Below, one piece after another: positions 32,711 to 49,313 of a stretch of DNA of 64,000 bases. The first letter of the stretch is position 1, and every line of letters starts with the position of its first letter. The stretch is taken from NCBI GenBank assembly GCA_947564265.1, contig CANOBK010000007.1, forward strand, positions 38,529 to 102,528, read 5' to 3'. This DNA is from an uncultured Bacillales bacterium. GTDB lineage: Bacteria; Bacillota_I; Bacilli_A; RF39; UBA660. The notes beneath the pieces are model-generated. The model had not been told where the DNA came from, did not search any database, and saw only the letters and a list, made by a program, of their open reading frames with translations. A program made the translations under genes and the position numbers.

Positions 32711-32739
32711 TATTAAATCATTAGAAACTATGCTATAAT
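32711..32739 (+). promoter_or_regulatory. Putative promoter (extended -10)
   Basis: TGcTATAAT (TATAAT 32734-32739); weak -35 TATTAA. Confidence 0.4.
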
Positions 32740-32767
32740 GGAATAGAAAAGTTAATGGAGGTAACAT

Positions 32768-33526: not shown

Positions 33527-34664
33527 AATTTTTCATATGCTAAAAAAAGAAATCAGGGAAATGTTTCGAGATAAAAAATCATTATCGATGATGCTAGTTG
33601 TTCCGATTATGATTCCACTTTTGGTAATTGGAATGAGTGCTCTTTTTGAAATGCAAATGAACAAACCAGTAACCGACTATAATCGAATTGGTTTTGCTTA
33701 TGATTTAGGAGAAGTGGAAGAAAACCTTGCAAAGGAATTTGAAATAGATATCACTACAGGGGATGAAGAAGAAATTGAATCAATGTATCAAGATGGACTC
33801 CTTGACTTATATGTTACCAAGGAAAGTCAAGAATATACGATTCATGGGGATGATAATGACACAACCTCTTATGCCTCTTCCTTAGTAGAAAGCTACTTTA
33901 GTGCTTATAAAGAGTATTTACAGGGAGAGTATTTAGGAGACTATGAGATTGACCCTCAAGAAGTAATCAGTATTATTCAGGTAAATAAAGATATTGTAGA
34001 AAAAGAAAATTATTTTGCGAGCTACATTACCAATTATGCATTTTTATTCATTTTAATGGCAATTACTGTTTCAGCGACTTATCCATCGACGGATGCGACA
34101 GCTGGTGAAAAAGAACGTGGAACGTTGGAAACTTTACTTACTTTTCCAATTCGAAGTAAAGATATCATTCTTGGAAAATTCTTAAGTGTTAGTCTTTCTT
34201 CTGTAATTACTGGGATTATCAGTTTAATTTTAATGGTTATTTCTTTAGTAATTGCAGGTAACATGTTTGAAATTTATAAAGGAGTAGAAATGATGCTTCC
34301 TGTTAGCAGTTTAATTTTCTCAGGAATTGTTATTATCGCATATTCTCTTCTAATCAGTGGATTATGTATTGCAGTCGCTAGTAAATCAAAGACCTTTAAA
34401 GAAGCACAAAGTGCCCTAACACCACTTACCTTCATTTCTTTCTTTCCAGGAATGATTGCCTTTATGATTAACGTAGAAAGTAGTGCCTTACTTTCTTTAG
34501 TACCATTCTTGAATTTCTCTTTATTATTTACGGATATCACGAATGGAACAGTTAACTATATTAATATCTTCTTAATGTTGTTATCTACTATTGTCGTGAT
34601 TGGAATTGTATTGGGAATCATTATTAAGCAATATAAATCAGAAAAGGTTTTATTTTCAGAATAG
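33513..34664 (+). CDS. ABC-2 permease (NatB-like)
   Basis: Overlaps the upstream stop by 14 nt; N-terminal TM, large loop, then 5 C-terminal TM spans. Confidence 0.8.
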   Translation: MMKNKIFHMLKKEIREMFRDKKSLSMMLVVPIMIPLLVIGMSALFEMQMNKPVTDYNRIGFAYDLGEVEENLAKEFEIDITTGDEEEIESMYQDGLLDLYVTKESQEYTIHGDDNDTTSYASSLVESYFSAYKEYLQGEYLGDYEIDPQEVISIIQVNKDIVEKENYFASYITNYAFLFILMAITVSATYPSTDATAGEKERGTLETLLTFPIRSKDIILGKFLSVSLSSVITGIISLILMVISLVIAGNMFEIYKGVEMMLPVSSLIFSGIVIIAYSLLISGLCIAVASKSKTFKEAQSALTPLTFISFFPGMIAFMINVESSALLSLVPFLNFSLLFTDITNGTVNYINIFLMLLSTIVVIGIVLGIIIKQYKSEKVLFSE

Positions 34665-34743
34665 AAGTTAAAAAAGTATGTTGGATTAAATTTCTTCCAG
34701 AATACTTTTTTTATGTTATAATAATTGGAAAAGGAGAACAACT

Positions 34744-35970
34744 ATGGAGAAGGAAAAAGTAGTCCCATTACTTAAAAATGTATTTCCTCTAAACCAGGAA
34801 AGATTTCTAGTATTAAAAGAGGAGTCAGAGCAGCTTCTTCTTTATGATGAGATCAATCAAATCTATTTTGATATCAAACCCACGAATCAAGTGAGCAACT
34901 TTGTAACAAGTGACCTTTTTGGATTTCATATTGAATTAACTTATGAGAAAACGAATGGACTGAGTCGACAGATTGAAATGTTAGATACAGGAAAAATATT
35001 ATTGGATGAAATTCGTTTGGTGGAGGGAGAATACACAGCAACTTTTACTTCGAGTGAAAAATTAGTATCCTTTGAATTAGGTGAAGAGGAATTATTAGAA
35101 AAAGTAGTTTTTACTGGCTCTAATGAAATCACTCGGGTAGGAAATTACTATTTAGTAACTATTCCGAATCAGACTTACTTTGATATTTCTTTAAGAAAAG
35201 GAGAAGCAGAGATTTATACAGAACACCATGCTAAAAAATTAGATCAAGCGCTTGAATGTAATAGGATTAGAATAGCACAAGGTAAAAATAATAGAAATCA
35301 TATCGATACTACGACAGCAACAGAAGGAACTTGTAAGATTTATCGGATGACTTATATGGGAGAAGATGAACCAAATTATAGTAGTTATTTTATCTCTTCT
35401 GTTTCAGACGATTTAAATAGATTTAGTGAATGGGCACCATATCAATTTTCTAGTATAGATAATCCTTATCAAATTCTTCTTAGAGACGCAGAAACGAAAA
35501 AGGAAGAGATTATTTCCTATTTGACTTTTATGAAATGGAATCCAGACCATCTTCGATTAACGATTTTGAAAATGAAGGATGAATTTGAAATCTTTATTCT
35601 GGGTAGTGGAACGTATCATTGCACGAAACTTCCAGTTTTACATTCTAATTTGATTGATAGTGATGAACTTAAAATCCTTTGGGAATATTTAGAAACAGTG
35701 ATTACGGATTCTTCTTTTTTAGAAATCCTAAGTCAAGAATTGATTCATTTTTCCGATATCTTAAGACAAGAGTCGAAAGAAGATGTTTTAGATACCTTTT
35801 CGACAGAGAGTTTATTTAATCAAGGAATGGAAGAAACCAAAAGAATGATTTGTTCTAATCAAAATTCTGTAATAGAGCAGCTTTTAAAGAAAAGAAATTC
35901 TTTTGAATTAAACATTTCAAAAGAAAAAATAAAAGAATATAAGGATGAGATTCAAGGAGGAAAAAGATGA
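34744..35970 (+). CDS. Hypothetical cytoplasmic protein (408 aa), no recognised domain
   Basis: AAGGAG RBS; long uninterrupted ORF; its stop overlaps the SDR start (ATGA). Confidence 0.7.
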   Translation: MEKEKVVPLLKNVFPLNQERFLVLKEESEQLLLYDEINQIYFDIKPTNQVSNFVTSDLFGFHIELTYEKTNGLSRQIEMLDTGKILLDEIRLVEGEYTATFTSSEKLVSFELGEEELLEKVVFTGSNEITRVGNYYLVTIPNQTYFDISLRKGEAEIYTEHHAKKLDQALECNRIRIAQGKNNRNHIDTTTATEGTCKIYRMTYMGEDEPNYSSYFISSVSDDLNRFSEWAPYQFSSIDNPYQILLRDAETKKEEIISYLTFMKWNPDHLRLTILKMKDEFEIFILGSGTYHCTKLPVLHSNLIDSDELKILWEYLETVITDSSFLEILSQELIHFSDILRQESKEDVLDTFSTESLFNQGMEETKRMICSNQNSVIEQLLKKRNSFELNISKEKIKEYKDEIQGGKR

Positions 35971-36665
35971 AAGAAATTATAATTGTAAGTGGTGGAGCGA
36001 GTGGACTTGGTTATCACTTAGTGAAACAACTTTTAGAAAAAGGTTTTACTGTTTGTGCGATTGACTTTAATAAGAAAAAATTAGAAGAGTTAGAAAAAGA
36101 ATTTCATGAAAATTACTATTCTTTTTGTGGAGATGTATCTGATCAATTATTTGTAGAACAAACAATTTCAGAAATTTCTAAGATGGGAACGATTTCTGGA
36201 CTGATTAACAATGCAGGAGAGCCTTCTTTTAAAATGCCAAAGGACTATCAGAAGGAAGATATCACTCGTTGCTTTAAAGGATTAGAAGGAATGATTCTGT
36301 TAACTTCGAGAGTTTTACAAGCAACTTCTGAATCCAATGTAAAAATTATCAATGTTATGTCTTCTGCTGCTCTTAGAGGAAATCAACAAGAAAGTGTTTA
36401 TTGTGCAACAAAATGGGGTGAACGTGGCTATACAGAGAGTTTAAAAGTGGCTTATAAAGGAACGAGTGTCAAAGTAATTGGAGTTTATCCTGGAGGAATG
36501 GATACTGATTTTTATCAGAATAGTAGGGATTATGTATCATTAGAAAAACAACATACATTTATGAATCCAAAAGATGTCGCAGAGATTATGATTACTAATA
36601 TTTTTAATGATTTGAATTTAACAGTCAGTGATTTAATGATTGAACGGAATCCTAAGAAAGATTAG
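35967..36665 (+). CDS. SDR-family oxidoreductase
   Basis: 'IIVSGGASGLGYHL', 'NNAG', YxxxK as 'YCATK'. Confidence 0.85.
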   Translation: MKEIIIVSGGASGLGYHLVKQLLEKGFTVCAIDFNKKKLEELEKEFHENYYSFCGDVSDQLFVEQTISEISKMGTISGLINNAGEPSFKMPKDYQKEDITRCFKGLEGMILLTSRVLQATSESNVKIINVMSSAALRGNQQESVYCATKWGERGYTESLKVAYKGTSVKVIGVYPGGMDTDFYQNSRDYVSLEKQHTFMNPKDVAEIMITNIFNDLNLTVSDLMIERNPKKD

Positions 36666-36676
36666 AGGTAGAAAAT

Positions 36677-37393
36677 ATGTTAAACAAGAGAAATAAAGAA
36701 GTGAAAGAAAAGTATTACTTTGTGAAATTAAAAGGAGCAGGAGTATTAAGCATTCATGAAGAAAAAAATTTAAGTGAAGATGAGTATCATCCTGCTGAGG
36801 AAATTGAAACGGGATCTTATCAAAAACTAGTTGTAGAAAAAGGGGAAACTGGTAGTGCAGTTTATAATCTATTGGTTACTCCTGAAGAATATTCTGCTTT
36901 TCGATTTAAAACAATCAAATTTCAAAAAGCAAATAATGCTACTCTTGATGGATTTTCCTATGATAAAGAACATGGTATTGTTGTTTATGGAGTTATTGAT
37001 GGTATTTATGCGACAATGGAGAATGGAAAATGTTATGATGTAGTTTCAGGAGAAGTGATTCCATGGAGTATTATCTCTTATTATGTAGAAAGAGAAACTG
37101 TTGAACAACTGGAGGATATGCGTCATGATTTAGAAACGATTCATGGTCATGAGGATGTTTATATTCAATTAATGAGAGATCAATTTAAATTATTAGAAGC
37201 AGGAGAAGAAAATCTAAGAATCGCTACCAAAAAATACGAGGAAAAGTATGAACAGGCAATCAAACAATTAGAGGAAGAAAGGAATAAAAAACAACAACGG
37301 TATAAAGTTATCCTAAGACGGCAAAAGCCAATGATTTTATCAGAAAAATTAAAAATAAAACAGTTGATTGATACAATTAGAAGTAGTAAATAA
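36677..37393 (+). CDS. Unknown-family protein, tandem paralogue 1 of 3
   Basis: Shares 'YF.(V/I).L.G', 'EYH', 'LDGF.YDKE.G.V.YG...G.YA', 'YDV..G..IPW', 'RET' and a C-terminal Lys/Glu coiled-coil ending 'QLIDTIRSSK' with the next two ORFs. Confidence 0.75.
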   Translation: MLNKRNKEVKEKYYFVKLKGAGVLSIHEEKNLSEDEYHPAEEIETGSYQKLVVEKGETGSAVYNLLVTPEEYSAFRFKTIKFQKANNATLDGFSYDKEHGIVVYGVIDGIYATMENGKCYDVVSGEVIPWSIISYYVERETVEQLEDMRHDLETIHGHEDVYIQLMRDQFKLLEAGEENLRIATKKYEEKYEQAIKQLEEERNKKQQRYKVILRRQKPMILSEKLKIKQLIDTIRSSK

Positions 37394-37432
37394 TTTATAA
37401 AAATATTATGAAGAATAGTAGGTGAGCAATCA

Positions 37433-38146
37433 GTGGAACATAATGAGTTAGAAGAGGATTATTTTTTAATTCACTTAGAGGGATTGGGCAACAATCTTTT
37501 AGCAATCCAAGAGAAAAAACAATTAGAAGAGAAAGAATATCATTCGATCAGTCGGGAAGAAAGTGGTACTTATTCTATTTTGGTCGATATAGAAAAGAGA
37601 ACAGGCAGAAATATTTATTCTTTAGGAGTACATGAAGAGTGTTATCATACTTATCAATTTGAATCAGTCTCTTTTCAAAAAATAAATGACTTTGCCTTCG
37701 ATGGCTTTGAATATGACAAAGAAAGAAAAGTTGTCTTTTACGGATATATTTATGGTCTTTATGCGGTGAAAAGTGGTGATGATTATTATGACGTCATTAC
37801 AGGACAGAAAATTCCATGGGGAGTGATTCATACTGTATCAGAAAGAGAAACCAAAGATGATTTTGAAACTATGATAGAAGATTTAGAATTTATTCAAGGG
37901 CACAAAGATATTTATCTGAAGTTTATAGAAGAGGTACTCCGTCTGCTACAAGAAGGAGCAAATAATAGAGAAGCAGCAGTGACCCGTTATAGAAAAAATT
38001 ATCATGAAAAGAAACAACAAGAGGATTTTAAATTGAAACAGCAGCTAGAAAATGGAAAACGATTGCGCGAAGAAAGAAGAATAGAAAATGCTCCAAAAAG
38101 AGAAAAAGTAAAAGAATTAATTGATGGAATAAGAAACAGTGATTAG
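37433..38146 (+). CDS. Unknown-family protein, tandem paralogue 2 of 3
   Basis: AGGTGA RBS + GTG start; collinear homology to 36677 and 38190; ends 'ELIDGIRNSD'. Confidence 0.75.
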   Translation: MEHNELEEDYFLIHLEGLGNNLLAIQEKKQLEEKEYHSISREESGTYSILVDIEKRTGRNIYSLGVHEECYHTYQFESVSFQKINDFAFDGFEYDKERKVVFYGYIYGLYAVKSGDDYYDVITGQKIPWGVIHTVSERETKDDFETMIEDLEFIQGHKDIYLKFIEEVLRLLQEGANNREAAVTRYRKNYHEKKQQEDFKLKQQLENGKRLREERRIENAPKREKVKELIDGIRNSD

Positions 38147-38189
38147 AAAGACGAATAATTAAATTATATGAAGATAGTGAGAAAAGAAG

Positions 38190-38930
38190 ATGAATAAACA
38201 AGATTTAAAAGAAACATATTTTTTAATTCAATTAAAAGGCAATTTCGGTGAAATGTTAAGTCTTCTGGAAGAAAAAAAATTGTCAGAAAATGATTATCAT
38301 CCAATAGATGTCAATCAAGCAAGCATGTATCGCCTTTTAGTAGAGACACAAGCAGAGACTGGGAATAATATCCCTGCTTTAGGTGTATTTAAAGAACCTT
38401 ACAAGGACTATAAATTTGAATCTGTATTTTTTCAAATTGTAAATGACTTTACTTTAGATGGATTTTTATATGATAAGGAAAGAGGAGTCGTTTTCTATGG
38501 AAATGTTTCTGGACTGTATGCAGTAGAAAGAGATAATGCTTATTATGATGTAATTACAGATGAGAAGGTTCCGATAGAAGGAATTGATAGAGTTTCTAAA
38601 ATAGAAACTTTAGATCACTTTCTAAATATGGTAGAAGATTTGAAAATTATAGGAAAGTGTAAAGAAATTTATCATGAAGTTGTAGAAGAGGAACTTCGCT
38701 TATTAAAGGAAGGTGAAAATAATAGAGTAATTGCCCATCAGCGTTATAGAGATAACTACAATCAAGCAAAAAAGTTAGCTGCAGAAACAGAGAAAGCGAA
38801 AGAGGAAAAAAAACAGAGAGAGAAAACATGGGAAGAATATATGAAATCTGCAAAAGCAACTGAAAAGGTAATTGACTCTAAAAGAGAAGAGGCTAGTCAA
38901 TTAATTTATCAAATTCGAAATAATAATTAG
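38190..38930 (+). CDS. Unknown-family protein, tandem paralogue 3 of 3
   Basis: Collinear homology ('FESVFFQIVNDFTLDGFLYDKERGVVFYG..SGLYAV....YYDVIT'); ends 'QLIYQIRNNN'. Confidence 0.75.
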   Translation: MNKQDLKETYFLIQLKGNFGEMLSLLEEKKLSENDYHPIDVNQASMYRLLVETQAETGNNIPALGVFKEPYKDYKFESVFFQIVNDFTLDGFLYDKERGVVFYGNVSGLYAVERDNAYYDVITDEKVPIEGIDRVSKIETLDHFLNMVEDLKIIGKCKEIYHEVVEEELRLLKEGENNRVIAHQRYRDNYNQAKKLAAETEKAKEEKKQREKTWEEYMKSAKATEKVIDSKREEASQLIYQIRNNN

Positions 38931-38957
38931 AAAGTGATTTTATCATTTTCTTTTTTT
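38930..38957 (+). terminator. Rho-independent terminator
   Basis: GAAAGTGAT (38930-38938) / ATCATTTTC (38942-38950), one G-U pair, then TTTTTTT. Confidence 0.6.
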
Positions 38958-38971
38958 GAAGGAGGAATAAG

Positions 38972-39496
38972 ATGCAGGTAGTTCATCCACTATCACCAAT
39001 TTATGATGAAAATTCTAAAGTTTTGATTTTGGGAAGTATGCCATCTGTGAAGTCTAGAGAGGTTGGTTTTTATTATGGTCATCCCAAAAATCGTTTTTGG
39101 AAAGTTTTAGAAAAAGTTTATGAGGAAAAAATAGGAGAGAGTAAGGAAGAAAAGATTTTATTTTTAAAGAAACACCATATTGCCCTTTTTGATGTTTTAA
39201 AGAGTTGTGATATTGCCTCTTCTAAAGATCAATCTATTAAAAATCCAGTACCAAACGATTTTACTGAGATTTTAGAAAATACAAAAATAAAAGTGATTTT
39301 TACAACAGGAAGAAAGGCACAGGAACTGTATCACAAATACTGTTATCCGAAAACAAAAATAGAAGCCATCTATTTACCAAGTACTTCTCCTTGTAATTGT
39401 CCAAAAGGAATTGAGGACAAATTAGAGAACGCTTATAAAGAGATAAAGAAATATACGGAAAATTCTTTTTCCTCGTCTAAAAAAATGATAGAATAG
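38972..39496 (+). CDS. UDG-superfamily DNA glycosylase, family-6-like (DNA-deoxyinosine / hypoxanthine-DNA glycosylase)
   Basis: GAAGGAGG RBS; 'ILGSMPSVKSREVGFYYGHPKNRFW', 'LPSTSP'. Confidence 0.7.
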   Translation: MQVVHPLSPIYDENSKVLILGSMPSVKSREVGFYYGHPKNRFWKVLEKVYEEKIGESKEEKILFLKKHHIALFDVLKSCDIASSKDQSIKNPVPNDFTEILENTKIKVIFTTGRKAQELYHKYCYPKTKIEAIYLPSTSPCNCPKGIEDKLENAYKEIKKYTENSFSSSKKMIE

Positions 39497-39513
39497 TACT
39501 AAGGAGTGATTGT

Positions 39514-40143
39514 ATGAAAGTGTTATTAGCAACCACAAACGATGCAAAAATTAAATATTACGGAACAAGATTAAAAGAAAAGGGAATTAATCTTGTAACA
39601 TTAAAAGATTTAGAGATAGATGTTGATGTGGATGAAACGGGGAAGGATCCAATTGAAAATGCAGTGATTAAAGCAAAAACTTATTACGAAATTAGCCAAC
39701 TTCCTACGATTGCAATCGATGACGGATTATTTTTTGAAAATGTACCAGAAGAGGTTCAACCAGGAACCCATGTTCGTAGAGTGGGTGAAAAAAGACTGAA
39801 TGATCAAGAAATGATTGAACATTATATTAATCTTGTAAATCAATATGGTACAGATGGAAAATTAAATGGATATTTTTTAAAAGGAGTAGCAGTTGTAAAC
39901 GGAGAAAACAATTATACTTTTGACTACAAATCTAATCGTCACTTTACAAATAGGCAGAGTAATTTCTTAGATAAAGGATATCCTTTAGATTCAATTCAGA
40001 TTGTTGTTCCTATCAATAAATTTAAGTGTGAATTAACAAAAGAAGAGGAAGAGGCTACTTTAGGTATTGAAAAGAAAGAAATATTTGGATTTATTTTAAA
40101 AACAATTCAGGAAATAGAAAAGAGAGTTCTAAGAGAATGGTGA
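39514..40143 (+). CDS. Ham1/ITPase-like non-canonical purine NTP pyrophosphatase, divergent paralogue
   Basis: 'KVLLATTNDAKIKYY', 'ENAVIKAK', 'IAIDDGLFFENVPEEVQPGTHVRR'; lacks the C-terminal SHR motif. Confidence 0.65.
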   Translation: MKVLLATTNDAKIKYYGTRLKEKGINLVTLKDLEIDVDVDETGKDPIENAVIKAKTYYEISQLPTIAIDDGLFFENVPEEVQPGTHVRRVGEKRLNDQEMIEHYINLVNQYGTDGKLNGYFLKGVAVVNGENNYTFDYKSNRHFTNRQSNFLDKGYPLDSIQIVVPINKFKCELTKEEEEATLGIEKKEIFGFILKTIQEIEKRVLREW

Positions 40144-40152
40144 AATCATAGT

Positions 40153-40824
40153 ATGGAAATCAAAGATTTAAATAAAAAATATGATGTACTTCAAAAGAAA
40201 TATGGAGCTAAAGAACTTGATTCTATTTATAATGGAGGTTTAGAAGAAAACCCTGATATCTGTTTTGTATTTATGAATCCAACAGGAAGGAATATTGCCT
40301 CTACGAAAGAATGGAAAGGAAGAAAATCTCCCTGGATTGGTACAAAGAATATTTGGGATTTGTTTTATGCAATCGATTTAGTTGATGAAGATTTATATTT
40401 AGAAATCAAACAAAAAAAGGGAAGCGAATGGACGGAAGAATTTGCAGATATTGTCTATCAAAATGTGGAAGCACACCGTTACTTTATTACGAATTTAGGA
40501 AAATGTACACAGGTTGATGCTAGACCACTTCCAGATTCTGTTTATAAGGAATATTTAAATTTACTATATAAAGAGTTTGAAATTCTAAAACCAAAAGTTA
40601 TTATTCTTTTTGGAAATCAAGTGAGCTCTATTGTGTTAGATCAGAAAATTTCTGTTTCACAAAGTAGAAAAACCTGCTATGAGAAAAAAATTAAAAAAGA
40701 AACTTATAAATTTTACCCTGTCTATTATCCGATTGGAAATGGGAGATTTAATATTGATAAGTCAATTGAAGATATCAAATGGATTATGAAACAGGAATTA
40801 GGGAAGACGGAGGTAGTAAAATGA
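40153..40824 (+). CDS. UDG-superfamily protein, divergent (family 4/SMUG-like motif A 'FMNPTG')
   Basis: 'ICFVFMNPTGRN', 'ITNLGKCTQ', 'VIILFGNQVS'. Confidence 0.6.
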   Translation: MEIKDLNKKYDVLQKKYGAKELDSIYNGGLEENPDICFVFMNPTGRNIASTKEWKGRKSPWIGTKNIWDLFYAIDLVDEDLYLEIKQKKGSEWTEEFADIVYQNVEAHRYFITNLGKCTQVDARPLPDSVYKEYLNLLYKEFEILKPKVIILFGNQVSSIVLDQKISVSQSRKTCYEKKIKKETYKFYPVYYPIGNGRFNIDKSIEDIKWIMKQELGKTEVVK

Positions 40825-41300
40825 GTCATAAACCAGAACAAGTTAAAATGACGAATATGTGTATGATTATGGATCCTAAGACTGGAAAAGTGTTAGTTCA
40901 AAACCGGAATAAAAATGATTGGGATGGAGTTTCTTTTCCAGGAGGACATATTGAAAGAGGGGAACCAATTATTCTTTCTGTTTTCCGAGAAATATTTGAA
41001 GAAACAGGACTAAAGGTGAAAAATTTAGTTCCTTGTGGTTGTAAAGACTGGTATGATTATGAAAAAGAAGAACGATATTTAGTTTTATTTTATAAGACTT
41101 CTTCTTATGAGGGAAAACTTCTTCCAAGGTCGAAGGAAGGAGAAAACTTTTGGATGAGTATTGAAGAAATTAAACAGTCCGTTGTAGCAGAAGATTTTAT
41201 AGAGATGTTAGAAATTTTTACAGGGGATTCTCCTTATCAAGAATTTTTCTATGAGGATCATGGAGAAGAAGAACCTCGTTGGGTGAAAAAGTTTTATTAG
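40821..41300 (+). CDS. NUDIX hydrolase, MutT/8-oxo-dGTPase-like
   Basis: Perfect Nudix box 'GGHIERGEPIILSVFREIFEETGL'; ATG 40821 overlaps the upstream stop (ATGA). Confidence 0.85.
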   Translation: MSHKPEQVKMTNMCMIMDPKTGKVLVQNRNKNDWDGVSFPGGHIERGEPIILSVFREIFEETGLKVKNLVPCGCKDWYDYEKEERYLVLFYKTSSYEGKLLPRSKEGENFWMSIEEIKQSVVAEDFIEMLEIFTGDSPYQEFFYEDHGEEEPRWVKKFY

Positions 41301-41307
41301 GATATAA

Positions 41308-42033
41308 ATGATGGAAAGTAATAAGCAAGAGAAATTAGAACAGTTGTTTAGAGAAATGTCAAACTGTAAGAATTGTTGTCATTTAGTTAAGAAAAATGGG
41401 AAAGATTGTTCTTTAATCAACATTTATCAAGAACCTGAGTTTTATCAAAATATTCCTTCTATTTGGACGGACTGGTACCGAAGAGTAGATGCCGATATTA
41501 TGATAATTGGTCAAGATTGGGGACCTTATGAAGAAATGAAAAAATTTCATGATCAATATTTGCTTGATAAAACTCCTAATCATTGGAACTATCTAATAGA
41601 GGAAGAAAAAAGCATGACTAAAAAAATGTTAACGAAATATTTGATGGAGTCTTCTAAGGGTACGAATCATGAAATGAAGGAATCAGATATGAATCATATT
41701 TATGTTACGAATGCGATTATGTGTGCGAGAAAGGGCAATCATTATCGTGGGGATAATATTCAGCTAAAAGAATCAACGATCGGTTGTTCCCGCTTTTTAA
41801 AAAGGCAAATAGAGATTGTAAATCCTAAAATAATTGTAACATTAGGATACTATCCATTACTTTCTCTTTCTCATATTTTTCATTTTAAAATTGAAGATAA
41901 TTTGACAAAAACGATTGAAAAAATGCCTGAAATACAGGTTCAAAATTACCGGATTATTCCTCTTTATCATCCAACTGCGCAAGTAAATAAAGAAAGACAA
42001 ATCGCTCAGTATGAACGAATTTGGAAGAGTTAG
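41308..42033 (+). CDS. UDG-superfamily protein, family-4-like with N-terminal Cys cluster and variant motif A 'GQDWG'
   Basis: 'CKNCCHL...CSL', 'IMIIGQDWGP', 'VTNAIMCAR', 'PLYHPTAQ'. Confidence 0.6.
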   Translation: MMESNKQEKLEQLFREMSNCKNCCHLVKKNGKDCSLINIYQEPEFYQNIPSIWTDWYRRVDADIMIIGQDWGPYEEMKKFHDQYLLDKTPNHWNYLIEEEKSMTKKMLTKYLMESSKGTNHEMKESDMNHIYVTNAIMCARKGNHYRGDNIQLKESTIGCSRFLKRQIEIVNPKIIVTLGYYPLLSLSHIFHFKIEDNLTKTIEKMPEIQVQNYRIIPLYHPTAQVNKERQIAQYERIWKS

Positions 42034-42049
42034 GAAAGGAGTTGATAGA

Positions 42050-42715
42050 ATGGCTTGTGAAATCAAATATGTAGGAAAATATCGAAATGGAAAAGAAAAG
42101 TATTGGTGTCTTACTCATAAGGAAAAGGCTTCTGATAAAAATGGAACAAAACTTAAGGAATGTCTTTCTCCTAATAAATCTCTCTTTGATAAAAAAAGCA
42201 GATTTGAGTCATCAGAGGTACAATCAATTAAAATTATATTTCCTAATTTATTGAAAAGTAAATCTTTTCAGATATTAATGAATGGAAAAGAAGTCCCTGG
42301 TGTTTTTTCTATCGGAGATTCTCTTATAGAACCACAAAATTTTATCGGTTTGTTTCTAGCAAAGCTAAATGGAATCAAATTAGAAAAGGCAATTTGTTCT
42401 CATTGCGGACATCTTCATAATGATAATTCTCTTTTTGCGATTACTCCTCATAGAAAACATCTTTGTCATTATTGTGGCCATGAATTTTTCTGTAAGGAAG
42501 CAAATGTAGGAAGTGAATTTCTTGGTTATTTTGTGATTCCAGAAATTCAGTTAAAAAAGGCTACTCTCGAAATCAAAGAAACAGCATGTGTTACTTATGA
42601 CATTCTATCAGGAAAAGTTCTAGTAGATGATATGGAAGTAGATTCTGTTTTGATTGGAAAAGAAAAATTAGAAATTCAAAAATGGATTAGTCAAGCAATT
42701 TTAAGTAACCTATAA
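42050..42715 (+). CDS. Hypothetical Zn-ribbon protein
   Basis: AAGGAG RBS then ATG 42050; 'CSHCGHLHNDNSLFAITPHRKHLCHYCGHEFFC' (paired CxxC-type knuckles). Confidence 0.6.
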   Translation: MACEIKYVGKYRNGKEKYWCLTHKEKASDKNGTKLKECLSPNKSLFDKKSRFESSEVQSIKIIFPNLLKSKSFQILMNGKEVPGVFSIGDSLIEPQNFIGLFLAKLNGIKLEKAICSHCGHLHNDNSLFAITPHRKHLCHYCGHEFFCKEANVGSEFLGYFVIPEIQLKKATLEIKETACVTYDILSGKVLVDDMEVDSVLIGKEKLEIQKWISQAILSNL

Positions 42716-42737
42716 AGAATTAAAGGGGGTATATGTG

Positions 42738-43010
42738 ATGGATTTATTATTTGAATTTTTAATAGAACTGACTATGGAAGGCGCCATTGAAGTTAGCAAG
42801 AACAAAAAGATAAGTAATTGGATTAGGTATCCACTAATTATTTTGATTATACTGTTCTTTAGTGTAGTAATCTTAGGAATCTTTATTTTAGGTATTATCG
42901 TAAGAAAAGATAATTTATTCTTATCAATTTTACTCATCGCACTCAGTATCTTTATGTTAACTGCATCTATTCTAAAGTTTAAAAAAATATATATTGAAAA
43001 GAAACAGTAA
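42738..43010 (+). CDS. Small two-TM membrane protein
   Basis: AAAGGGGG RBS; 'YPLIILIILFFSVVILGIFILGIIV' and 'LFLSILLIALSIFMLTASIL'. Confidence 0.5.
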   Translation: MDLLFEFLIELTMEGAIEVSKNKKISNWIRYPLIILIILFFSVVILGIFILGIIVRKDNLFLSILLIALSIFMLTASILKFKKIYIEKKQ

Positions 43011-43046
43011 ATATAATAATATAAGTATATGAGAAAGGAAGATATT

Positions 43047-43418
43047 ATGAAAAATAATTATGAAACTTGGACAAGAGAATTTTTAGAATCTTGGAAGAAC
43101 TTAGATTGGGAGAAAACATTAGAAACACTTGATAAAGAAGTAGTTTATTATGAAAATCCAATCGATGAACCTTGTAAAAATTTTGAAGAGGTAACTGCTT
43201 TATGGAATGTTGTTGCTACTAATCAAAAAGATATTGATTATCAATTTGAAGTAATTGCGTTTGATGAGAAGTTTTGTATCATTAACTTTCAAATGACTAG
43301 AACAATGACAGCCACTAATAAAAAGCAACAGATTGATGGTGTATTTCAAATTTCTTTAAATAGCGAAAACAAATGTACTTATTTTAAACAATGGAGATTT
43401 ACAAAAGAGGAAGCTTAA
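43047..43418 (+). CDS. NTF2/SnoaL-like fold protein
   Basis: Small protein with 'WTREFLESWKNLDWEKTLETL...VVYYENP'. ATG 43047 follows the internal AAAGGAAG SD. Confidence 0.5.
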   Translation: MKNNYETWTREFLESWKNLDWEKTLETLDKEVVYYENPIDEPCKNFEEVTALWNVVATNQKDIDYQFEVIAFDEKFCIINFQMTRTMTATNKKQQIDGVFQISLNSENKCTYFKQWRFTKEEA

Positions 43419-43423
43419 ATTTT

Positions 43424-43888
43424 ATGAATTCCAAGAATTTAAAGGAACAAATCCTTTTGAATTTAAAAGAACAACTTTCGGGAGAACAATTTCAATTTTT
43501 AGAATCAAAAAACATGCATCTTGGAATTTTTACAGAACCCTATCTCACTTATATGCTAGATGGGAAAAAGACAATTGAGTCTAGATTTAGTAAAAATAAA
43601 ATTGCGCCCTATGAAAAAATAGAATTAGGGGACATTGTTCTAGTTAAGAAATCAGGGGGAAAGGTTTTAGCTTTTTTTACAATCAAAGAAATTTTATTTT
43701 TTGATTTAGAGGAAACTCCAATTTCTGAAATTAGAAAAAAATATGAAAAGGAATTATGTGTAGAGGAAGCATTCTGGAAGCAGAAAGAAAAGAGTAGATA
43801 TGGAACTCTAATTAGAATTGATCAAATTGAAAGATTGAAACCCTTTTCTATTTCAAAAAAGGGAATGCAAACTTGGATCAAATTGTAA
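43424..43888 (+). CDS. ASCH-domain protein
   Basis: 'EPYLTYMLDGKKTIESRFSKNKIAPYEKIELGDIVLVKKSGGKVLAFFTI'. Confidence 0.6.
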   Translation: MNSKNLKEQILLNLKEQLSGEQFQFLESKNMHLGIFTEPYLTYMLDGKKTIESRFSKNKIAPYEKIELGDIVLVKKSGGKVLAFFTIKEILFFDLEETPISEIRKKYEKELCVEEAFWKQKEKSRYGTLIRIDQIERLKPFSISKKGMQTWIKL

Positions 43889-43985
43889 GTGAAAAAAATT
43901 ATGAAAAATAAAAGGAACAAAAAGATAGTAAATGTTCCTTTTATTTAGTATAATGGTAGTAATAAAGAAAATTGGGAGTGAAAAA

Positions 43986-46505
43986 ATGATAGAACTAAAA
44001 GACGTACATAAGACGTATAAATCGAAAAGGAGTAAAAGTACCAAAGCCTTAGATGGAGTTTCGTTAACTCTCGGAAATCAAGGAATGACTTTTATTCTAG
44101 GAAAGAGTGGATCTGGTAAATCAACTTTATTAAATGTTCTAGGGGGACTGGATAAGTATGATTCTGGAGATATGTTAATTCTTGGAAAAAGCAGTAAATC
44201 TTTTACACAGGCAGATTTTGATTCTTATCGAAATACCTATGTAGGATTTATCTTTCAAGAGTTCAACATTTTGGAAGATTATGATGTCTATCAAAATATT
44301 GTCCTTGCCTTACAACTTCAACAGAAAGAAGTAAATGATAAAGAAATTAATCAACTATTAGATAAGTTGGAATTAACAGAATTAAAGAAACGAAAAGTAA
44401 ATGAATTATCTGGAGGACAAAAGCAAAGAGTAGCGATTGCACGTGCCTTAATTAAACAACCGAAAATTATTTTAGCAGATGAGCCTACTGGAAACCTAGA
44501 TAGTAAAACTGGGCGCCAGGTAATGGAACTTTTAAAGAAGATTTCTAAGGAAAAACTAGTAGTAATCGTTTCACACGATGAAGAATATGCTCATGAATAT
44601 GGTGACCGAATTATTGAGATTAAAGATGGAAAAGTCGTAAAAGACTCTAAGAAAATTGAGGAAAATGGTGATGAAGAAAATCATTATCAGACAGTAAAAT
44701 CTCATTTGCCACTGAAAGATAGTTTTAAACTAGGAATTGGGAGTCTAAAGCATAAAAAAGTAAAACTAGTATTTACAGTGTTACTTACCGTTCTAACTCT
44801 TGGATTCTTAAGTTGTACAGATACCCTATCTAGTTATGACTTTAGTGTAGGTCATGCGAAGTTACTAGCGGATAGAAATGAGCAATTTCTACAAGTAGAA
44901 AAGAACTTTGTATCAAGAGATAAAAAGGGAGAAGCAGAGGACGTGGTTACTCTTTCAATGGATGATGATACCTTAAAGAATATTCAAGAAAAAGTGAATC
45001 AAGAAGGTTATGAAGTTTATAAATACTATGATAAAAATTCTTGGGGAGAACCTAGTACGATTCAAAATATCTTACATATTCAAGATGATTCTTATTCTGA
45101 GAGTAAAGCTGAGATTGTAGTAGCGAATGATCTATCTAAGATATTGAGAGAAAGTGTTACTGGTAGAAATCCTAGTGCACCGAATGAAATTGTAATCTCT
45201 AATCAAACAGCAGATTTAATTCTTCAAAAGGGAGTAGAAGTTCATGAAATTGTAGTGAAGAATGAATTTAAGGAATCTTATGTTTTTCAACCAAAATCTT
45301 ATGAAGAAATTTTAAATACAAATTATACTTATTACTTTGGTGTATTAGGGGAAGTTAAAATTGTTGGAATTATCAATTATGATTTGAGTTCTATTTCTCG
45401 CCAATATGAGGAGAATGTTTTAAACAAAATTTATGTAAATGAAGGTTTTATTTCGAATTTAAAAACAGAAGAGTTAAATTCTATAAAATCTAATTATGCA
45501 GTAAACTTAGATGTAACAGGATTGGAAATTCCTAGTGACTATACTATGTCTGTAGCAAACTCTACAGTTTTAAATCATGAAATAGAATATTTTGATGGAA
45601 CTGGATGGAAAAAAACTAGTCAATTAAATGAGAATGAAATCATTCTTTCTATGAGACAAATTGATCCAACGGGAAGCTATGGCGATGATTTGTATAATTA
45701 TACAAGTCAAAATTATAATATGGATTATAATGAAGCAACAAAACGTTTTCTAGCAAATTATATTAGTGAAAAGAATGTAATTGGTCAGAGTGCTACTTTT
45801 AGAGTTAATTATCAAACAATGAATCAGGATTTTGTTAAAGAATATAATAATTTGACTGTTATCGGTGTATATTATGAAGAAATGTCTTCAGATTACTATG
45901 GTGATAATAATTACTTCTCGAATCAGCTATTAGGTGAATATATCCAACAGCCGATAGAAAAATCTAGTGTTTTATATCCGATGACTAGCAAATCAGAATT
46001 TAAAAAATTGTCTAGTATGTTTCCTATTGAAACGGAATTGGCTATAAAATCTACTTATAGTGGTACAATGGCTTATGAAAAGATGTTCTTTGATTCAATT
46101 AAAACACTAGCTTCTTATGTAGGGATGGTCTTTATTGTATTTACAGCATTTTTAATTATTAACTTTATGTTTAATAGTATTAGTTATCGAAAAAAAGAAA
46201 TTGGTGTGTTAAGAGCACTTGGTTCTAGAAGTCTCGATGTAATGAAAATTTTCTTATGGGAAGCTTTTTGTCTTTCTGTTATCTCTGGAACAATTGCCTC
46301 TATCTTACTTGTAGTAGTATCGAATTTTATGAATTCTTATATTATGACAAAACTAGCGGGAATGTTAACAACACCATTTATTGTAGGTATTCGACAATTT
46401 GTTGTTATTTATTTCTTAGTATTTGCGGTTACTTTTATTTCTAGTATTTTACCACTACTTCGAATTTCTAAAATGAGACCGATTGATGCAATCTTAAATA
46501 AATAA
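43986..46505 (+). CDS. MacB/FtsX-type fused ABC transporter (ATPase + large extracytoplasmic domain + FtsX permease)
   Basis: GGGAGTGA RBS; Walker A 'GKSGSGKST', 'LSGGQKQRVAIARAL', 'IILADEPTGNLD'; C-terminal 'YRKKEIGVLRALGSRS' FtsX motif. Confidence 0.88.
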   Translation: MIELKDVHKTYKSKRSKSTKALDGVSLTLGNQGMTFILGKSGSGKSTLLNVLGGLDKYDSGDMLILGKSSKSFTQADFDSYRNTYVGFIFQEFNILEDYDVYQNIVLALQLQQKEVNDKEINQLLDKLELTELKKRKVNELSGGQKQRVAIARALIKQPKIILADEPTGNLDSKTGRQVMELLKKISKEKLVVIVSHDEEYAHEYGDRIIEIKDGKVVKDSKKIEENGDEENHYQTVKSHLPLKDSFKLGIGSLKHKKVKLVFTVLLTVLTLGFLSCTDTLSSYDFSVGHAKLLADRNEQFLQVEKNFVSRDKKGEAEDVVTLSMDDDTLKNIQEKVNQEGYEVYKYYDKNSWGEPSTIQNILHIQDDSYSESKAEIVVANDLSKILRESVTGRNPSAPNEIVISNQTADLILQKGVEVHEIVVKNEFKESYVFQPKSYEEILNTNYTYYFGVLGEVKIVGIINYDLSSISRQYEENVLNKIYVNEGFISNLKTEELNSIKSNYAVNLDVTGLEIPSDYTMSVANSTVLNHEIEYFDGTGWKKTSQLNENEIILSMRQIDPTGSYGDDLYNYTSQNYNMDYNEATKRFLANYISEKNVIGQSATFRVNYQTMNQDFVKEYNNLTVIGVYYEEMSSDYYGDNNYFSNQLLGEYIQQPIEKSSVLYPMTSKSEFKKLSSMFPIETELAIKSTYSGTMAYEKMFFDSIKTLASYVGMVFIVFTAFLIINFMFNSISYRKKEIGVLRALGSRSLDVMKIFLWEAFCLSVISGTIASILLVVVSNFMNSYIMTKLAGMLTTPFIVGIRQFVVIYFLVFAVTFISSILPLLRISKMRPIDAILNK

Positions 46506-46515
46506 AGTTACATAC

Positions 46516-46548
46516 AAAAACAATGGTTCAATCTACCATTGTTTTTTT
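46516..46548. terminator. Bidirectional rho-independent terminator between convergent genes
   Basis: AAAAACAATGG (46516-46526) / CCATTGTTTTT (46536-46546). Confidence 0.85.
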
Positions 46549-46551: not shown

Positions 46552-47127
46552 TTATTTTTTCTTTTTACTTAGGATATAAGGAGTAAGGACGCCAACGGTT
46601 CTTTCTTCGTGAATTTCTCCTTGAATGCATAAATCGATAATTTCTTCATAATCTTTCCAAACAAATCCTTCGATGACTTCATCCTCTTCTAATTTAGGAC
46701 CATCTTTACTAACTTCATAATCTGTGATTTCATAATAATAAAGATCCCAAATAACACCAGCACCATCATGAGAGATTTTCAGAAGTTTTGGGTTTTTTAC
46801 AATTACGCCAACTTCTTCCATGACTTCTTTTGGTACTGTTTTTTCTACATGTTCTAGAACGGTATCTTCTTGAATTGATTTTTTATAATCATCTAAGGAA
46901 TCAAATACTTTTCCTCCTGGTAATCGGTAATCCCAGCCATTTAGTTCATAGCGAAATTCTCGAGATAAGAGAATTTTCATATTCTCTTCATCTACGATTA
47001 AAGCGCGGATTCCTGGAGGGCGTCTCACCATATTTCTTTTTACTGTTTTTTCCTTTCCTTCGATTAAAAAGGTCTCTTCTGTTTGAATAAATTCAAAAAA
47101 ACCATTGTCAAATAGTGACTTTTCCAT
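46552..47127 (-). CDS. NUDIX-like hydrolase with an interrupted Nudix box
   Basis: 'LPGGKVFDS...(insert)...KEVMEEVGV'; ADP-ribose-pyrophosphatase-like overall layout. Confidence 0.6.
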   Translation of the reverse strand: MEKSLFDNGFFEFIQTEETFLIEGKEKTVKRNMVRRPPGIRALIVDEENMKILLSREFRYELNGWDYRLPGGKVFDSLDDYKKSIQEDTVLEHVEKTVPKEVMEEVGVIVKNPKLLKISHDGAGVIWDLYYYEITDYEVSKDGPKLEEDEVIEGFVWKDYEEIIDLCIQGEIHEERTVGVLTPYILSKKKK

Positions 47128-47246: not shown

Positions 47247-48203
47247 GTGTATGACCTCTATTGGTATTTTGCATGGGAGAGACAAAATATATTTATTAGG
47301 AAGCAAGAAGGACAATCTCCCCCTTGGACGAAAGACCCTATCCTAAAGCAATATAAATTTTGTAATAGTTACCGAGTGAATGATCGAGTAAGTCAGTATT
47401 TATTAAAAAATGTAATTTATAATGGAAAGGTTTATTCTAAAGAAGATATGCTATTTCGTATTTTACTATTTAAGTTCTTTAATAAAGAAAGTACTTGGCA
47501 ATTACTTGAACAGGAGTTAGGTGAGATTACCTTAAAAACATTCTCTATAAAAAAGTATTCATCTATTCTAGAGACGGCGATTTCAAAAGGAATCAAAATT
47601 TACAATGATGCCTATATTAGTTGTGCAACTAAAGCTTATGGATATGATCGAAAACATGACAATCATCTAGCGTTATTAGAACATATCTTTAAAATAGATC
47701 AAGCACATTTAGAATTATTAAATGCTAAAACGATGAAAGATGCCTTTCATATTCTAAAAAGATATCCTCTTATTGGAAACTTTATGGCTTATCAGCTTGT
47801 AACAGACATTAATTATAGCGATATTGTATCTTGGGAAGAAAATGAATTTACGGTAGCGGGACCAGGATCTGAGAGAGGGATTAAAAAGTGTTTTATTGAT
47901 AAAGGAGGACTCTCGAATGAAGAAATTATTCGTTATATGTATGAACATCAAGAAGAAGAGTTTCTTCGGTTAGGATTCGATTTTAAAAGAATCGGAAATC
48001 GTTCTCTTCAACTAATTGATTGTCAAAATATTTTTTGTGAATTAGATAAGTATTGTAGAGTTTATTTTCCTGAGTTAAAATCAAATCGAGTAAAGATAAA
48101 AAAGAAATACATTCCTAAAAAAGGAAAGATAGAGTATATCTATCCACCAAAATGGAATATAAAAGGAGATGGAGATAATTATGAGAAAAGAAGATATTTT
48201 TGA
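47247..48203 (+). CDS. Possible member of the thymidine-hypermodification family (aGPT-Pplase / 5-hmdU DNA kinase helical-domain; databases label relatives 'nucleotide kinase domain-containing')
   Basis: From memory only: N-terminal 'LYWYFAWERQNIFIRKQEGQSPPWTKDPILKQYKFCNSYRVNDRVSQYL'. GTG start. Confidence 0.4.
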   Translation: MYDLYWYFAWERQNIFIRKQEGQSPPWTKDPILKQYKFCNSYRVNDRVSQYLLKNVIYNGKVYSKEDMLFRILLFKFFNKESTWQLLEQELGEITLKTFSIKKYSSILETAISKGIKIYNDAYISCATKAYGYDRKHDNHLALLEHIFKIDQAHLELLNAKTMKDAFHILKRYPLIGNFMAYQLVTDINYSDIVSWEENEFTVAGPGSERGIKKCFIDKGGLSNEEIIRYMYEHQEEEFLRLGFDFKRIGNRSLQLIDCQNIFCELDKYCRVYFPELKSNRVKIKKKYIPKKGKIEYIYPPKWNIKGDGDNYEKRRYF

Positions 48204-48317: not shown

Positions 48318-48689
48318 TTGATCAATGAAAATACAGTAATCTTTGCCCATTCAATTGCACCAGTCTTTATTTCAAAGTTTTTAATTAAAAATAAATTGAA
48401 AGTAAAGCGATGCGTCTTCGTTTGTGGTTTTAACAATTACTTGGGGATTGATGAAGAATACGATACCGTGAATAAAAGTATGTATTTAGAAAATCTAAAC
48501 GAGGTAAAAAACTACTGTGATGATATTGTTTGTTTTTATTCTGATAATGATCCTTATGTAAAACAAAGCGTTGAAAAAGAATTTGCAGATACCATTACGA
48601 CAAATCAAATTATGATTCCTGGTGGAGGTCATTTGAACTCTGAAAGTGGTTATCAGGAATTTAGTGAATTATTAAACTACTTATCATAG
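48318..48689 (+). pseudogene. N-terminally truncated YdeN/RBBP9-like serine hydrolase
   Basis: Begins inside the fold at 'NTVIFAHSIAP' (nucleophile elbow); TTG pseudo-start, no RBS; about 55-60 N-terminal residues are missing. Confidence 0.5.
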
Positions 48690-48743: not shown

Positions 48744-48783
48744 AACTAAGAAATCAGAAAGAAATCTTTCAGAGGTGATTCTA

Positions 48784-49260
48784 ATGTCAAAGGTTAGTAA
48801 CGTATTAACGATGATTGAATACTTAAGTAGTGGTAGAAAGTATAATATTCAGGAATTATCAGAATTATTAGAGGTATCTCCAAGAATGATTCGTGTTTAT
48901 AAAGATGAGATTGAAAAAGCAGGAATTTATATTGATACAATCAAGGGTCCTTATGGAGGTTATGTATTAAATCAAAATATTCATGTTCCGAAACGATTTA
49001 TCTCACCGAATCCGATTCGTGTTGAAAATAAAGAAATATTCAATATTGTGAGTAGAGGGATTAAAGAGAATTGTAAATGTAAAATTCATTATTATTCGAA
49101 AGGAAATACCTTAACTTCTAGAATCATTCATCCTTATGAATTAATTCTATTTGGAGACGAATGGGGTGTTGCTGCCTATTGTGAATTGCGAGATGAAATT
49201 AGACATTTTTATATTAATCGAATTGAGTCGATTCAATTATTAGAAAATTTTTCTAACTGA
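48784..49260 (+). CDS. Short HTH + WYL-domain transcriptional regulator (YafY/BrxR/CapW-like layout)
   Basis: GAGGTG RBS; HTH 'YNIQELSELLEVSPRMIRVYKDEIEKAG'; WYL-type 'FGDEWGVAAYCELRDEIRHFYINRIESIQLLE'. Confidence 0.75.
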   Translation: MSKVSNVLTMIEYLSSGRKYNIQELSELLEVSPRMIRVYKDEIEKAGIYIDTIKGPYGGYVLNQNIHVPKRFISPNPIRVENKEIFNIVSRGIKENCKCKIHYYSKGNTLTSRIIHPYELILFGDEWGVAAYCELRDEIRHFYINRIESIQLLENFSN

Positions 49261-49313
49261 CAGATATATTGCCTCTTCTTTTTGTATGATGATATTGAAA
49301 GAGAGGTTTTTAA

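Follow-up and report, generated by a model that had tools for sequence, protein, structure and literature searches.

Family-4 uracil-DNA glycosylases (UDGs; UDGa) carry a motif A of the form GE(A/G)PG (PMC5449639) and four cysteines at the ligand positions of an iron-sulfur (Fe-S) cluster. Family-1 UNG enzymes are marked by GQDPY and HPSPLS, MUG and TDG by GINPG, and SMUG1 by GMNPG. In the BdiUng class (Bradyrhizobium Blr0248) a family-4-like fold is joined to a family-1-like GQD motif A, and a small residue that replaces the Tyr of GQDPY admits 5-hydroxymethyluracil (5-hmU) and xanthine (PMC5449639). A UDG-like fold is also found in the defence glycosylases Brig1 and Brig2 (PMC11078745). We examined a row of nine genes, g1 to g9, at positions 38972-43888 of a 64,000-nucleotide stretch of DNA (the window) from an uncultured Bacillales bacterium, and compared its three UDG-superfamily proteins with these enzymes.

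All three proteins belonged to the UDG superfamily by hidden Markov model search, and g3 and g5 were also UDG-fold proteins by structure prediction. They represent three distinct lineages interleaved with Ham1-type and NUDIX pyrophosphatases, as an earlier sequence-only reading of the window had claimed. g3 and g5 are uncharacterised lineages matching no curated family, because both fell far under every curated family threshold; we found no paper characterising either one. The nine + strand open reading frames lie where that reading had placed them, and profile searches agreed with its domain calls for g1 to g5 and g8, with g9 just under the cut-off and g6 and g7 in no family. The genes and the evidence for each are as follows.

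38972..39496, + strand: g1, family-6 hypoxanthine-DNA glycosylase (HDG); TIGR04274, PF03167, PDB 2l3f
39514..40143, + strand: g2, divergent Ham1/ITPase-fold nucleoside triphosphate (NTP) pyrophosphatase; Ham1p_like, RdgB alignment, family invariants
40153..40824, + strand: g3, UDG-fold protein of an uncharacterised lineage; PF03167, AlphaFold2 (AF2) model, Foldseek, motifs
40821..41300, + strand: g4, MutT/NUDIX-family hydrolase; NUDIX profile, Nudix box, PDB 3exq and 2b06
41308..42033, + strand: g5, Fe-S-type UDG-fold protein of an uncharacterised lineage; PF03167, invariant residues, AF2 model, Foldseek
42050..42715, + strand: g6, Cys/His-rich (Zn-ribbon-like) protein; sub-threshold Zn_Ribbon matches only
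42735..43010, + strand: g7, small protein with two transmembrane segments; no family in profile libraries
43047..43418, + strand: g8, SnoaL_2 / NTF2-like protein; PF12680, 32.8 bits
43424..43888, + strand: g9, ASCH-like (PUA-like fold) protein; PF04266 ASCH, 20.2 bits, and phrog_3136

Two UDG-fold lineages and a hypoxanthine-DNA glycosylase

g1 was an ordinary family-6 HDG with no notable difference from that family. It is a family-6 equivalog by TIGR04274 (DNA-deoxyinosine glycosylase; 132.8 bits over residues 7-152, cut-off 80), scored 49.1 bits against the UDG profile PF03167 (gathering threshold 24.3), and aligned full-length with 2l3f (7e-17 over residues 9-143 in the PDB sequence search). 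Such an enzyme would remove hypoxanthine.

g3 and g5 also exceeded the PF03167 threshold (32.3 and 49.4 bits), and their AF2 models had high predicted local distance difference test scores (pLDDT 88.6 and 92.5). The nearest solved folds for both were family-4 UDGa structures from T. thermophilus (Tth; 1ui0), S. tokodaii (4zbx) and T. maritima (1l9g). Family-4 UDGs were the best Foldseek matches of g3 (E~1e-9, TM-score 0.62-0.74, 12-18% identity), and 4zbx was the best match of g5 (8e-9); UdgX, TDG and MUG followed after family 4 for both models, at 12-22% identity. However, the two proteins were only 12-22% identical to family-4 UDGa, and they scored 28-43 bits against family-4 models with cut-offs of 125-250: g3 reached 29.1 bits and g5 37.0 bits with TIGR00758 (cut-off 125.3), and 28.2 and 43.4 bits with NF040953 (cut-off 250). 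The family-4 and UdgX cut-offs were likewise reached by none of the 25 g3-family and 26 g5-family members scanned. Neither protein has the family-4 motif A. Tandem duplication as the origin of the three UDG genes was rejected, with a BLASTP E value of 0.84 between g3 and g5.

The motif quoted for g3 in the sequence-only reading, FMNPTG, was present and invariant within its family, and the same was true of GQDWG in g5. Motif A of g3 is of the Asn type, F[MI]NPTxRN, and is kept even in the most distant family members, with N42 inside a near-invariant NPT. It has the same Asn-Pro core as the MUG/TDG and SMUG1 motifs, and MUG and TDG were among the significant structural matches of g3. In motif B, [YF]P[VI]GxG, a Tyr or Phe stands in place of the catalytic His, in distant members as well; the most distant members also retain a further motif, PW[IL]G. 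The motif-B His is absent from family 2 too, but the g3 motif is unlike MPSSSAR and HPSPRN of families 2 and 3, these families gave no sequence-level match to g3, and its scaffold is overall nearer family 4. From family 4 itself g3 differs by its FMNPT motif A, by the absent motif-B His and by the absent Fe-S cysteines, C37 and C118 being its only cysteines. The family-4 motif-3 Asn is also missing. N114 aligns with N80 of Tth UDGa, which hydrogen-bonds uracil N3/O4 (PMC5387724). g3 would act as an Asn-type (MUG/SMUG-like) glycosylase on uracil-like or oxidised or deaminated bases.

The g3 family is large and compact. It gave 4,893 matches at 90% clustering, the 120 best of which were all at least 73% identical to g3, but only 348 clusters at E<=1e-3 when 1.84 billion representatives at 50% identity were searched exhaustively. 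In a scan of species representatives, g3 was 70-89% identical across at least 592 species genomes.

g5 retained several features of the family-4 active site. An N-terminal Cys cluster had been noted from the sequence alone, and it is real: C20, C139 and C160 are invariant and C23 is present in at least 90% of the family (674 matches), and together these cysteines align with the CxxC, KC and AC positions of the S. tokodaii enzyme and fill the four Fe-S ligand positions of family-4 UDGs, the four-Cys feature of families 4 and 5. The family-4 strand TN..C.R with the uracil-reading Asn is kept across the g5 family as ITNAIMCAR, in which N135 aligns with the uracil-reading N82 of S. tokodaii UDG, and motif B, YHP(T/A/V)AQ, supplies the His (H221). 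The difference lies in motif A, which is IIGQDWGP throughout the family and contains, in place of the family-4 form, a QD doublet like that of family 1, with D70 inside GQDWGP. g5 shares with family 1 the GQD and HP cores alone (GQDWG, YHPTAQ), and neither its PDB sequence matches (E<=10) nor its 50 best Foldseek matches included a family-1 chain.

By sequence, g5 therefore seems to combine, in a natural protein, a family-4-like Fe-S scaffold with the Gln-Asp doublet of family 1. An EG-to-QD doublet made by mutagenesis in a family-4 UDG is catalytically competent (Xia et al., PMC5387724), and g5 would be a uracil-type glycosylase with a QD doublet, motif-B His and uracil-reading Asn on a 4Fe-4S family-4-like scaffold. 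BdiUng resembles g5 in fold type and in its GQD motif A. Unlike g5, it is a dimer that lacks an Fe-S cluster and carries an extended protrusion where motif B would be, and it gave no sequence match to g5 in the PDB search and was absent from the 50 best Foldseek matches. The Tyr of GQDPY, which excludes 5-substituted uracil, is a Gly in g5 and a small residue in BdiUng; g5 may for this reason tolerate 5-substituted uracil, although extending the BdiUng result to g5 is speculation.

It is very improbable that g3 and/or g5 are UDG-fold proteins of another kind, either damage-binding or crosslinking proteins like UdgX or accessory domains such as those in phage A-family DNA polymerases. The missing motif-B His and motif-3 Asn of g3 would fit that explanation, as would Foldseek matches to UdgX and to UDG-like domains fused to phage DNA polymerases, and the label 'DNA polymerase' that some sources give to g5 homologues. 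However, families 2 and 6 are active glycosylases without the His (PMC5387724), g3 keeps the motif-A Asn as MUG and SMUG do, and g5 retains its Asp, Asn and His. The UdgX hallmarks, a GEQPG motif and a KRRIH loop (PMC10359453), are absent from both proteins, which scored 15-17 bits against the UdgX model TIGR03914 (14.7 for g3 and 17.4 for g5; cut-off 190).

The gene row and its relatives

The pyrophosphatase genes between the glycosylase-like genes were both assigned to superfamilies and not to equivalogs. g2 scored 55.2 bits against Pfam Ham1p_like (cut-off 22.5) over residues 3-139 only, and 53.6 bits against TIGR00042, the RdgB/Ham1 equivalog (cut-off 145); it lay below all NCBIfam equivalog cut-offs. 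Residues 2-132 align with E. coli RdgB (1k7k) at 1e-9, and the g2 family (387 matches) keeps TTNxAK, DETG, K53, D69-G71 and PG..R89, the phosphate and metal residues of ITPases. g2 thus has the fold and N-terminal catalytic residues of RdgB/Ham1/ITPA, whereas its C-terminal half, which contains the base-recognition region in ITPases, is family-specific and cannot be aligned with them. g4 scored 63.5 bits against the NUDIX profile and has a perfect Nudix box (G-x5-E-x7-REIFEETGL). Its nearest structures were Firmicute 'MutT/nudix family' proteins (3exq at 7e-28, 2b06 at 2e-26), and its scores against the MutT equivalogs TIGR00586 (27.2 bits, cut-off 97.9) and NF008044 (34.7 bits, cut-off 148) fell short. 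g2 would be a divergent ITPase-type enzyme functionally tied to g3, and g4 would be MutT/MutX-like.

Gene order in related genomes was assessed in the 80 best g3 loci (+-10 kb) among the at least 592 species-representative genomes with g3. Neighbours were detected by phmmer with the window proteins at E<=1e-5, a search that misses divergent analogous partners; neighbourhoods of g5 were taken from 80 metagenomic g5 loci. The following neighbours were counted near g3.

g2-type Ham1, any position: 21 of 80 loci
g2-type Ham1, immediately upstream on the same strand: 17 of the 76 loci with enough upstream DNA
other Ham1 type, adjacent: 2 loci
HDG: 3 of 80 loci
g4-type NUDIX: 3 of 80 loci
g5: 1 of 80 loci
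ASCH-like (g9-like): 7 of 80 loci
g6: 0 of 80 loci

Among the g5 loci, a NUDIX gene lay directly beside g5 in 6 of 80 and g3 was present in 3. Only two sub-modules recur: Ham1 upstream of g3 and, more weakly, NUDIX next to g5. The adjacency of Ham1 and g3 was kept while g2 diverged from 373 to ~160 bits.

The full set was confined to the closest relatives (at least 83% identity in g3), with insertions and losses. At 83% identity, L009 has the order SDR-HDG-Ham1-g3-NUDIX-g5, followed by an insertion sequence (IS) element, Aldedh, SnoaL and an ASCH-like gene. L011 and L012 (89%) have HDG, a 388-aa gene or YunG, then Ham1-g3-g5, with NUDIX missing; L013 (84%) has Ham1-g3 between RNaseHII-SOD and AKR and lacks HDG, NUDIX and g5; in L007 (80%) HDG-g3 precedes a restriction-modification system; and in L003 and L005 (76-78%) g3 stands alone in unrelated contexts. 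The contexts of g3 homologues include ordinary ones, such as RNase HII and SOD or peptide deformylase, and four g2 homologues (63-66% identity) were all solitary and without g3. The row is not a conserved unit. It is best described as HDG, a Ham1-g3 pair, a NUDIX-g5 pair and accessory genes, accreted in a narrow clade at a syntenic site between ABC-transporter and histidine-kinase genes upstream and ABC/FtsX downstream. The exact window proteins were found on metagenome or metagenome-assembled genome (MAG) contigs only, and the related gut MAGs carry the labels Bacilli, Tenericutes, 'Mycoplasma sp. CAG:877', Scybalousia or Merdicola. We found no paper on UDG-Ham1-NUDIX clusters.

Junction analysis agreed with the short and overlapping junctions that had been read from the sequence. 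Intergenic distances from g1 to g9 are 17 and 9 nt, the ATGA overlap of g3 and g4, then 7, 16, 19, 36 and 5 nt. The true start of g4 is 40821, overlapping the g3 stop; likely true starts are 42050 for g6, 43047 for g8 and 43424 for g9. A plausible ribosome-binding site precedes every start in the row. Hairpins were found at both ends.

38929..38957, + strand: weak hairpin with a U7 run, between g1 and the upstream paralog u3; -8.4 kcal/mol for a 10-bp stem, by itself not significant (z = -1.1)
43898..43954, + strand: terminator-like hairpin with a 14-bp core inside a longer interrupted stem and a U-rich tail; folding and inverted repeat I19

The first hairpin may be a leaky terminator at the 5' edge of the row. 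The second (-16.7 kcal/mol, z = -4.7, matched by 0 of 200 shuffles) is likely the 3' end of the transcription unit, and 3' of it a TATAAT box lies ahead of the ABC/FtsX gene. By the terminator scan, the stretch from 32155 to 46516 contains no strong terminator on the + strand, and none lies inside the row. Because of the tight junctions, the ATGA overlap, the hairpins at both ends and the lack of an internal terminator, a single transcription unit from g1 to g9 is plausible, and the overlap and the 5-19 nt gaps suggest translational coupling. A caveat on the operon call is that dense same-strand packing is the rule throughout the window and extends well past the nine genes. The DNA is ~30% GC with nearly every gene on the + strand, and a sigma-70 promoter scan was uninformative in such AT-rich sequence (89 found, 95 expected), leaving no promoter assignable. 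SOS control was rejected, since the Cheo box GAAC-N4-GTTC was neither enriched in the scan nor present upstream of the row.

These features bear on whether the genes are merely side by side. It is unlikely that the row is a juxtaposition with no functional coupling, a synteny inherited in a small strand-biased genome with no common regulation or pathway. Each component is solitary in other genomes and relatives carry unrelated genes interspersed in the row; these facts, the long co-directional run and the lack of Cheo-box excess, and so of a common operator, are consistent with such an explanation. However, three non-paralogous UDG-superfamily proteins and two NTP pyrophosphatases occupy five consecutive positions. 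Three genes placed at random among ~1,700 would by our estimate fall within five consecutive positions with a probability of about 3x(5/1700)^2 = 3e-5, for the UDGs alone, and the clustering therefore exceeds chance. The persistence of the Ham1-g3 adjacency despite g2 divergence, the pairing of a glycosylase with a pyrophosphatase twice from unrelated protein families, and the suggested translational coupling also argue for more than juxtaposition.

The accessory genes g6 to g9 varied in their distribution. No homologue of g6 was found in 160 related loci examined or in PDB or profile libraries, and the gene was apparently inserted as an orphan into the row of this genome alone. A g7 homologue lies directly 3' of g3 in L016. 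Of the 80 g5 loci, 5 have a SnoaL-like gene, as g8, beside the g5 homologue, and 4 of these 5 loci are near-identical. g9 scored 1 bit under the ASCH cut-off (E=1e-3, cut-off 21.2), matched phrog_3136 at 4e-5, and had no PDB sequence match.

Directly upstream of g1, at 36677-38930 (+), lie three tandem paralogs of 238, 237 and 246 aa (repeat spacing 753 and 757 bp) with no Pfam, NCBIfam or PDB match, and u3 in particular had no PDB sequence match. Their charged C-terminus is coiled-coil-like by eye. Homologues hold the same place 5' of the HDG gene in L011, L012, L015 and L016.

Several genes downstream of the row also recur near g3. At 46552-47127 (-) and 47247-48203 (+) a divergent pair encodes a NUDIX hydrolase (weakly YffH/AdpP-like) and a 318-aa protein that is almost entirely a helical domain of 5-hydroxymethyldeoxyuridine (5-hmdU) DNA kinase (HMUDK_hel; PF18723 E=9e-104, phrog_2396 1e-57) and that lacks both a P-loop and a kinase domain. 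The HMUDK_hel protein had no PDB sequence match, and no literature was found on a bacterial stand-alone HMUDK helical domain. Both genes are found again in L009 and L011, and one or the other is near g3 in L015, L033, L050 and L064. The next gene, a Ser_hydrolase at 48318-48689 (+), is 123 aa long (profile positions 54-170), against 185-190 aa in relatives (L011 16544-17101), and the HMUDK_hel protein is 318 aa here against 265 aa in relatives, which suggests that this junction has been rearranged or has decayed in this genome.

Further downstream, a module at 48775-50961 (+) comprises genes for a WYL-HTH regulator, for a 343-aa protein that matched neither a family nor a PDB entry, and for another Ham1/ITPase (82 bits), more canonical than g2; a strong terminator at 51015-51054 closes it. 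This second Ham1, 7 kb downstream, has marginal similarity to g2 (E=9e-4 over 40 residues); on this value the two were rejected as tandem duplicates. The trio recurs in L011 and L013/L014, the WYL and 343-aa genes lie near g3 in L018, L019 and L077, and WYL and Ham1 follow a g5 homologue in L120. The module could be a damage-responsive unit.

Defence context

The sequence-only reading had also proposed an anti-phage or anti-modified-DNA system, citing Brig1 as an example. The glycosylases would excise modified phage bases in the manner of Brig1, Brig2 and Brig3, while the corresponding modified dNTPs would be removed by the pyrophosphatases. UDG-fold defence glycosylases exist, and the best structural match reported for such an enzyme is, as for g3 and g5, the S. 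tokodaii family-4 UDG (4ZBY; PMC11078745). Brig2 targets 5-hmdU-derived thymidine modifications (bioRxiv 10.1101/2025.10.29.685425), and Brig3, in an operon with the helper hydrolase BapA, is a precedent for a glycosylase-hydrolase unit. The set of genes around the core is variable, as it is in defence islands, and the neighbours include the HMUDK_hel-domain protein, the WYL regulator and the ASCH/PUA-like protein. The contexts of g3 homologues are mixed, some holding restriction-modification genes or IS elements (L007, L009). At L182 4253-12645 a g2 homologue with 63% identity is flanked on one side by MunI-type restriction-modification genes with an MT-A70 methylase, and on the other by an OLD-TOPRIM ATPase paired with a UvrD helicase (Gabija-like); no other clear defence-island context was seen for any component of the cluster.

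Searches for defence and mobility features nevertheless gave no positive evidence for this idea. PADLOC-DB 2.0 (2023, predating Brig1-3) gave only a weak match of g4 to the generic candidate NUDIX model PDC-S07 (34.9 bits), and no model matched the glycosylases or Ham1. PHROGs had no match for g2, g3, g5, g6 or g8. Among 2.9 million viral contigs scanned, g5 was absent and g3 occurred in 5 loci only; the viral structure matches were generic COG1573 UDG domains at 10-17% identity, and a phage origin was rejected. Genes for an integrase, a transposase, restriction-modification or a toxin are missing from the window, the GC content of the row matches its flanks, no att-like or flanking direct or inverted repeats were found around the row, and no tRNA or Rfam element was found in the window.

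Distribution and active-site residues also set g3 and g5 apart from the published descriptions of Brig1, Brig2 and Brig3. Brig1 is rare and island-borne, with 42 homologues in defence islands (PMC11078745), and Brig2 homologues are often near mobile elements or defence systems (bioRxiv 2025.10.29.685425), whereas g3 and g5 are both conserved and common, g3 with its spread at 70% identity or more, and are found in ordinary chromosomal contexts. g3 and g5 both keep the uracil-reading Asn, whereas Brig1 uses a Glu for a cytosine derivative (PMC11078745). The defence interpretation of the row is thus unsupported, and we consider it quite unlikely.

Proposed function and significance

From the observed folds, motifs, gene order and genome distribution we infer substrates, co-transcription and a physiological role for the row. 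The non-random arrangement makes a shared aberrant-base theme reasonable, and this part of the earlier proposal of a dedicated 'aberrant-base' module was retained. The remainder was not: the components are distributed independently, and the full row is found in the closest relatives only, with gain and loss inside it, and it is not a dedicated, co-inherited system. The premise that several UDG families in one genome are unusual was overstated, as Bradyrhizobium carries at least 4 (PMC5449639); the unusual feature of this locus is the physical adjacency of UDG families.

We favour, with moderate confidence, a lineage-specific housekeeping 'sanitation' operon for non-canonical bases, in which pool cleaners are paired with glycosylases. 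Such an operon would have arisen by accretion of independently distributed genes at one syntenic site in an uncultured low-GC gut Bacilli lineage. In the nucleotide pool, g2 (Ham1 fold) and g4 (NUDIX) would hydrolyse aberrant (d)NTPs to monophosphates before polymerase use; in DNA, the three glycosylases would flip out and excise the same base classes, and the resulting abasic sites would pass to base-excision repair enzymes encoded elsewhere.

Several observations weigh against the sanitation operon. The functions given to the g2, g3 and g5 families are read from sequence and fold, and the co-transcription of the row from its junctions. g2 and g4 fall under every equivalog threshold, and profiles do not fix their substrates. 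g3 could be a poor or non-uracil enzyme because the motif-B His and the family-4 motif-3 Asn are both missing. Four of the nine genes, g6 to g9, have no evident tie to base repair. The sampled loci are phylogenetically related, and the 17 of 76 Ham1-g3 adjacencies are for that reason not 17 independent events. The neighbourhoods repeatedly contain unrelated genes as well (SDR, aldo-keto reductase, Ser hydrolase, SnoaL), so that inherited synteny in compact genomes may account for some of the association.

The window as a whole also holds ABC transporters, surface proteins, GNATs, HAD, HIT and HD_3 genes. Huge surface proteins, in which 7 and 4 cadherin-like repeats and 10 Big_2 repeats were counted, and a cohesin-domain protein are encoded at 8656-22618 (+) and 24969-27652 (+). 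Farther along are an HD_3 (YfbR-type 5'-nucleotidase-like) gene and a gene that joins a MatE transporter to a cytidylate-kinase-like domain. With HIT (53263-53682) and HAD (57439-58176) added, the window is rich in small nucleotide-handling hydrolases.

A more specific form of the sanitation operon would treat Ham1-g3 and, more weakly, NUDIX-g5 as matched two-tier systems, each for one non-canonical base beyond those handled by dUTPase/Ung, RdgB/EndoV and MutT/MutM. Xanthine is one candidate base; others are 5-hmU, or a uracil with another 5-substituent, and some base analogue that is frequent in the gut. The base could be phage-derived, as modified thymidine, and the locus with the nearby HMUDK_hel, WYL and ASCH-like genes would then double as a chromosomal barrier to modified DNA. 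We regard this as a long shot. In practice, the recurrent pairing of a glycosylase with an NTP pyrophosphatase offers a guide to substrate, as the partners should act on the same base. If the anti-phage reading were true, a multi-enzyme strategy acting on both pool and DNA would be added to glycosylase-based defences.

Two of the three glycosylases are compact, well-conserved lineages that match no curated or biochemically characterised family. The g3 type, with its Asn motif A and with neither motif-B His nor Fe-S cluster, is widespread in uncultured gut Bacilli, and until now mutagenesis was the only source of the combination of scaffold and doublet seen in g5 (PMC5387724). Characterising g3 and g5 would widen the catalogue of UDG families, and would show how abundant, reduced-genome, uncultured gut Bacilli keep uracil and aberrant bases out of their DNA.

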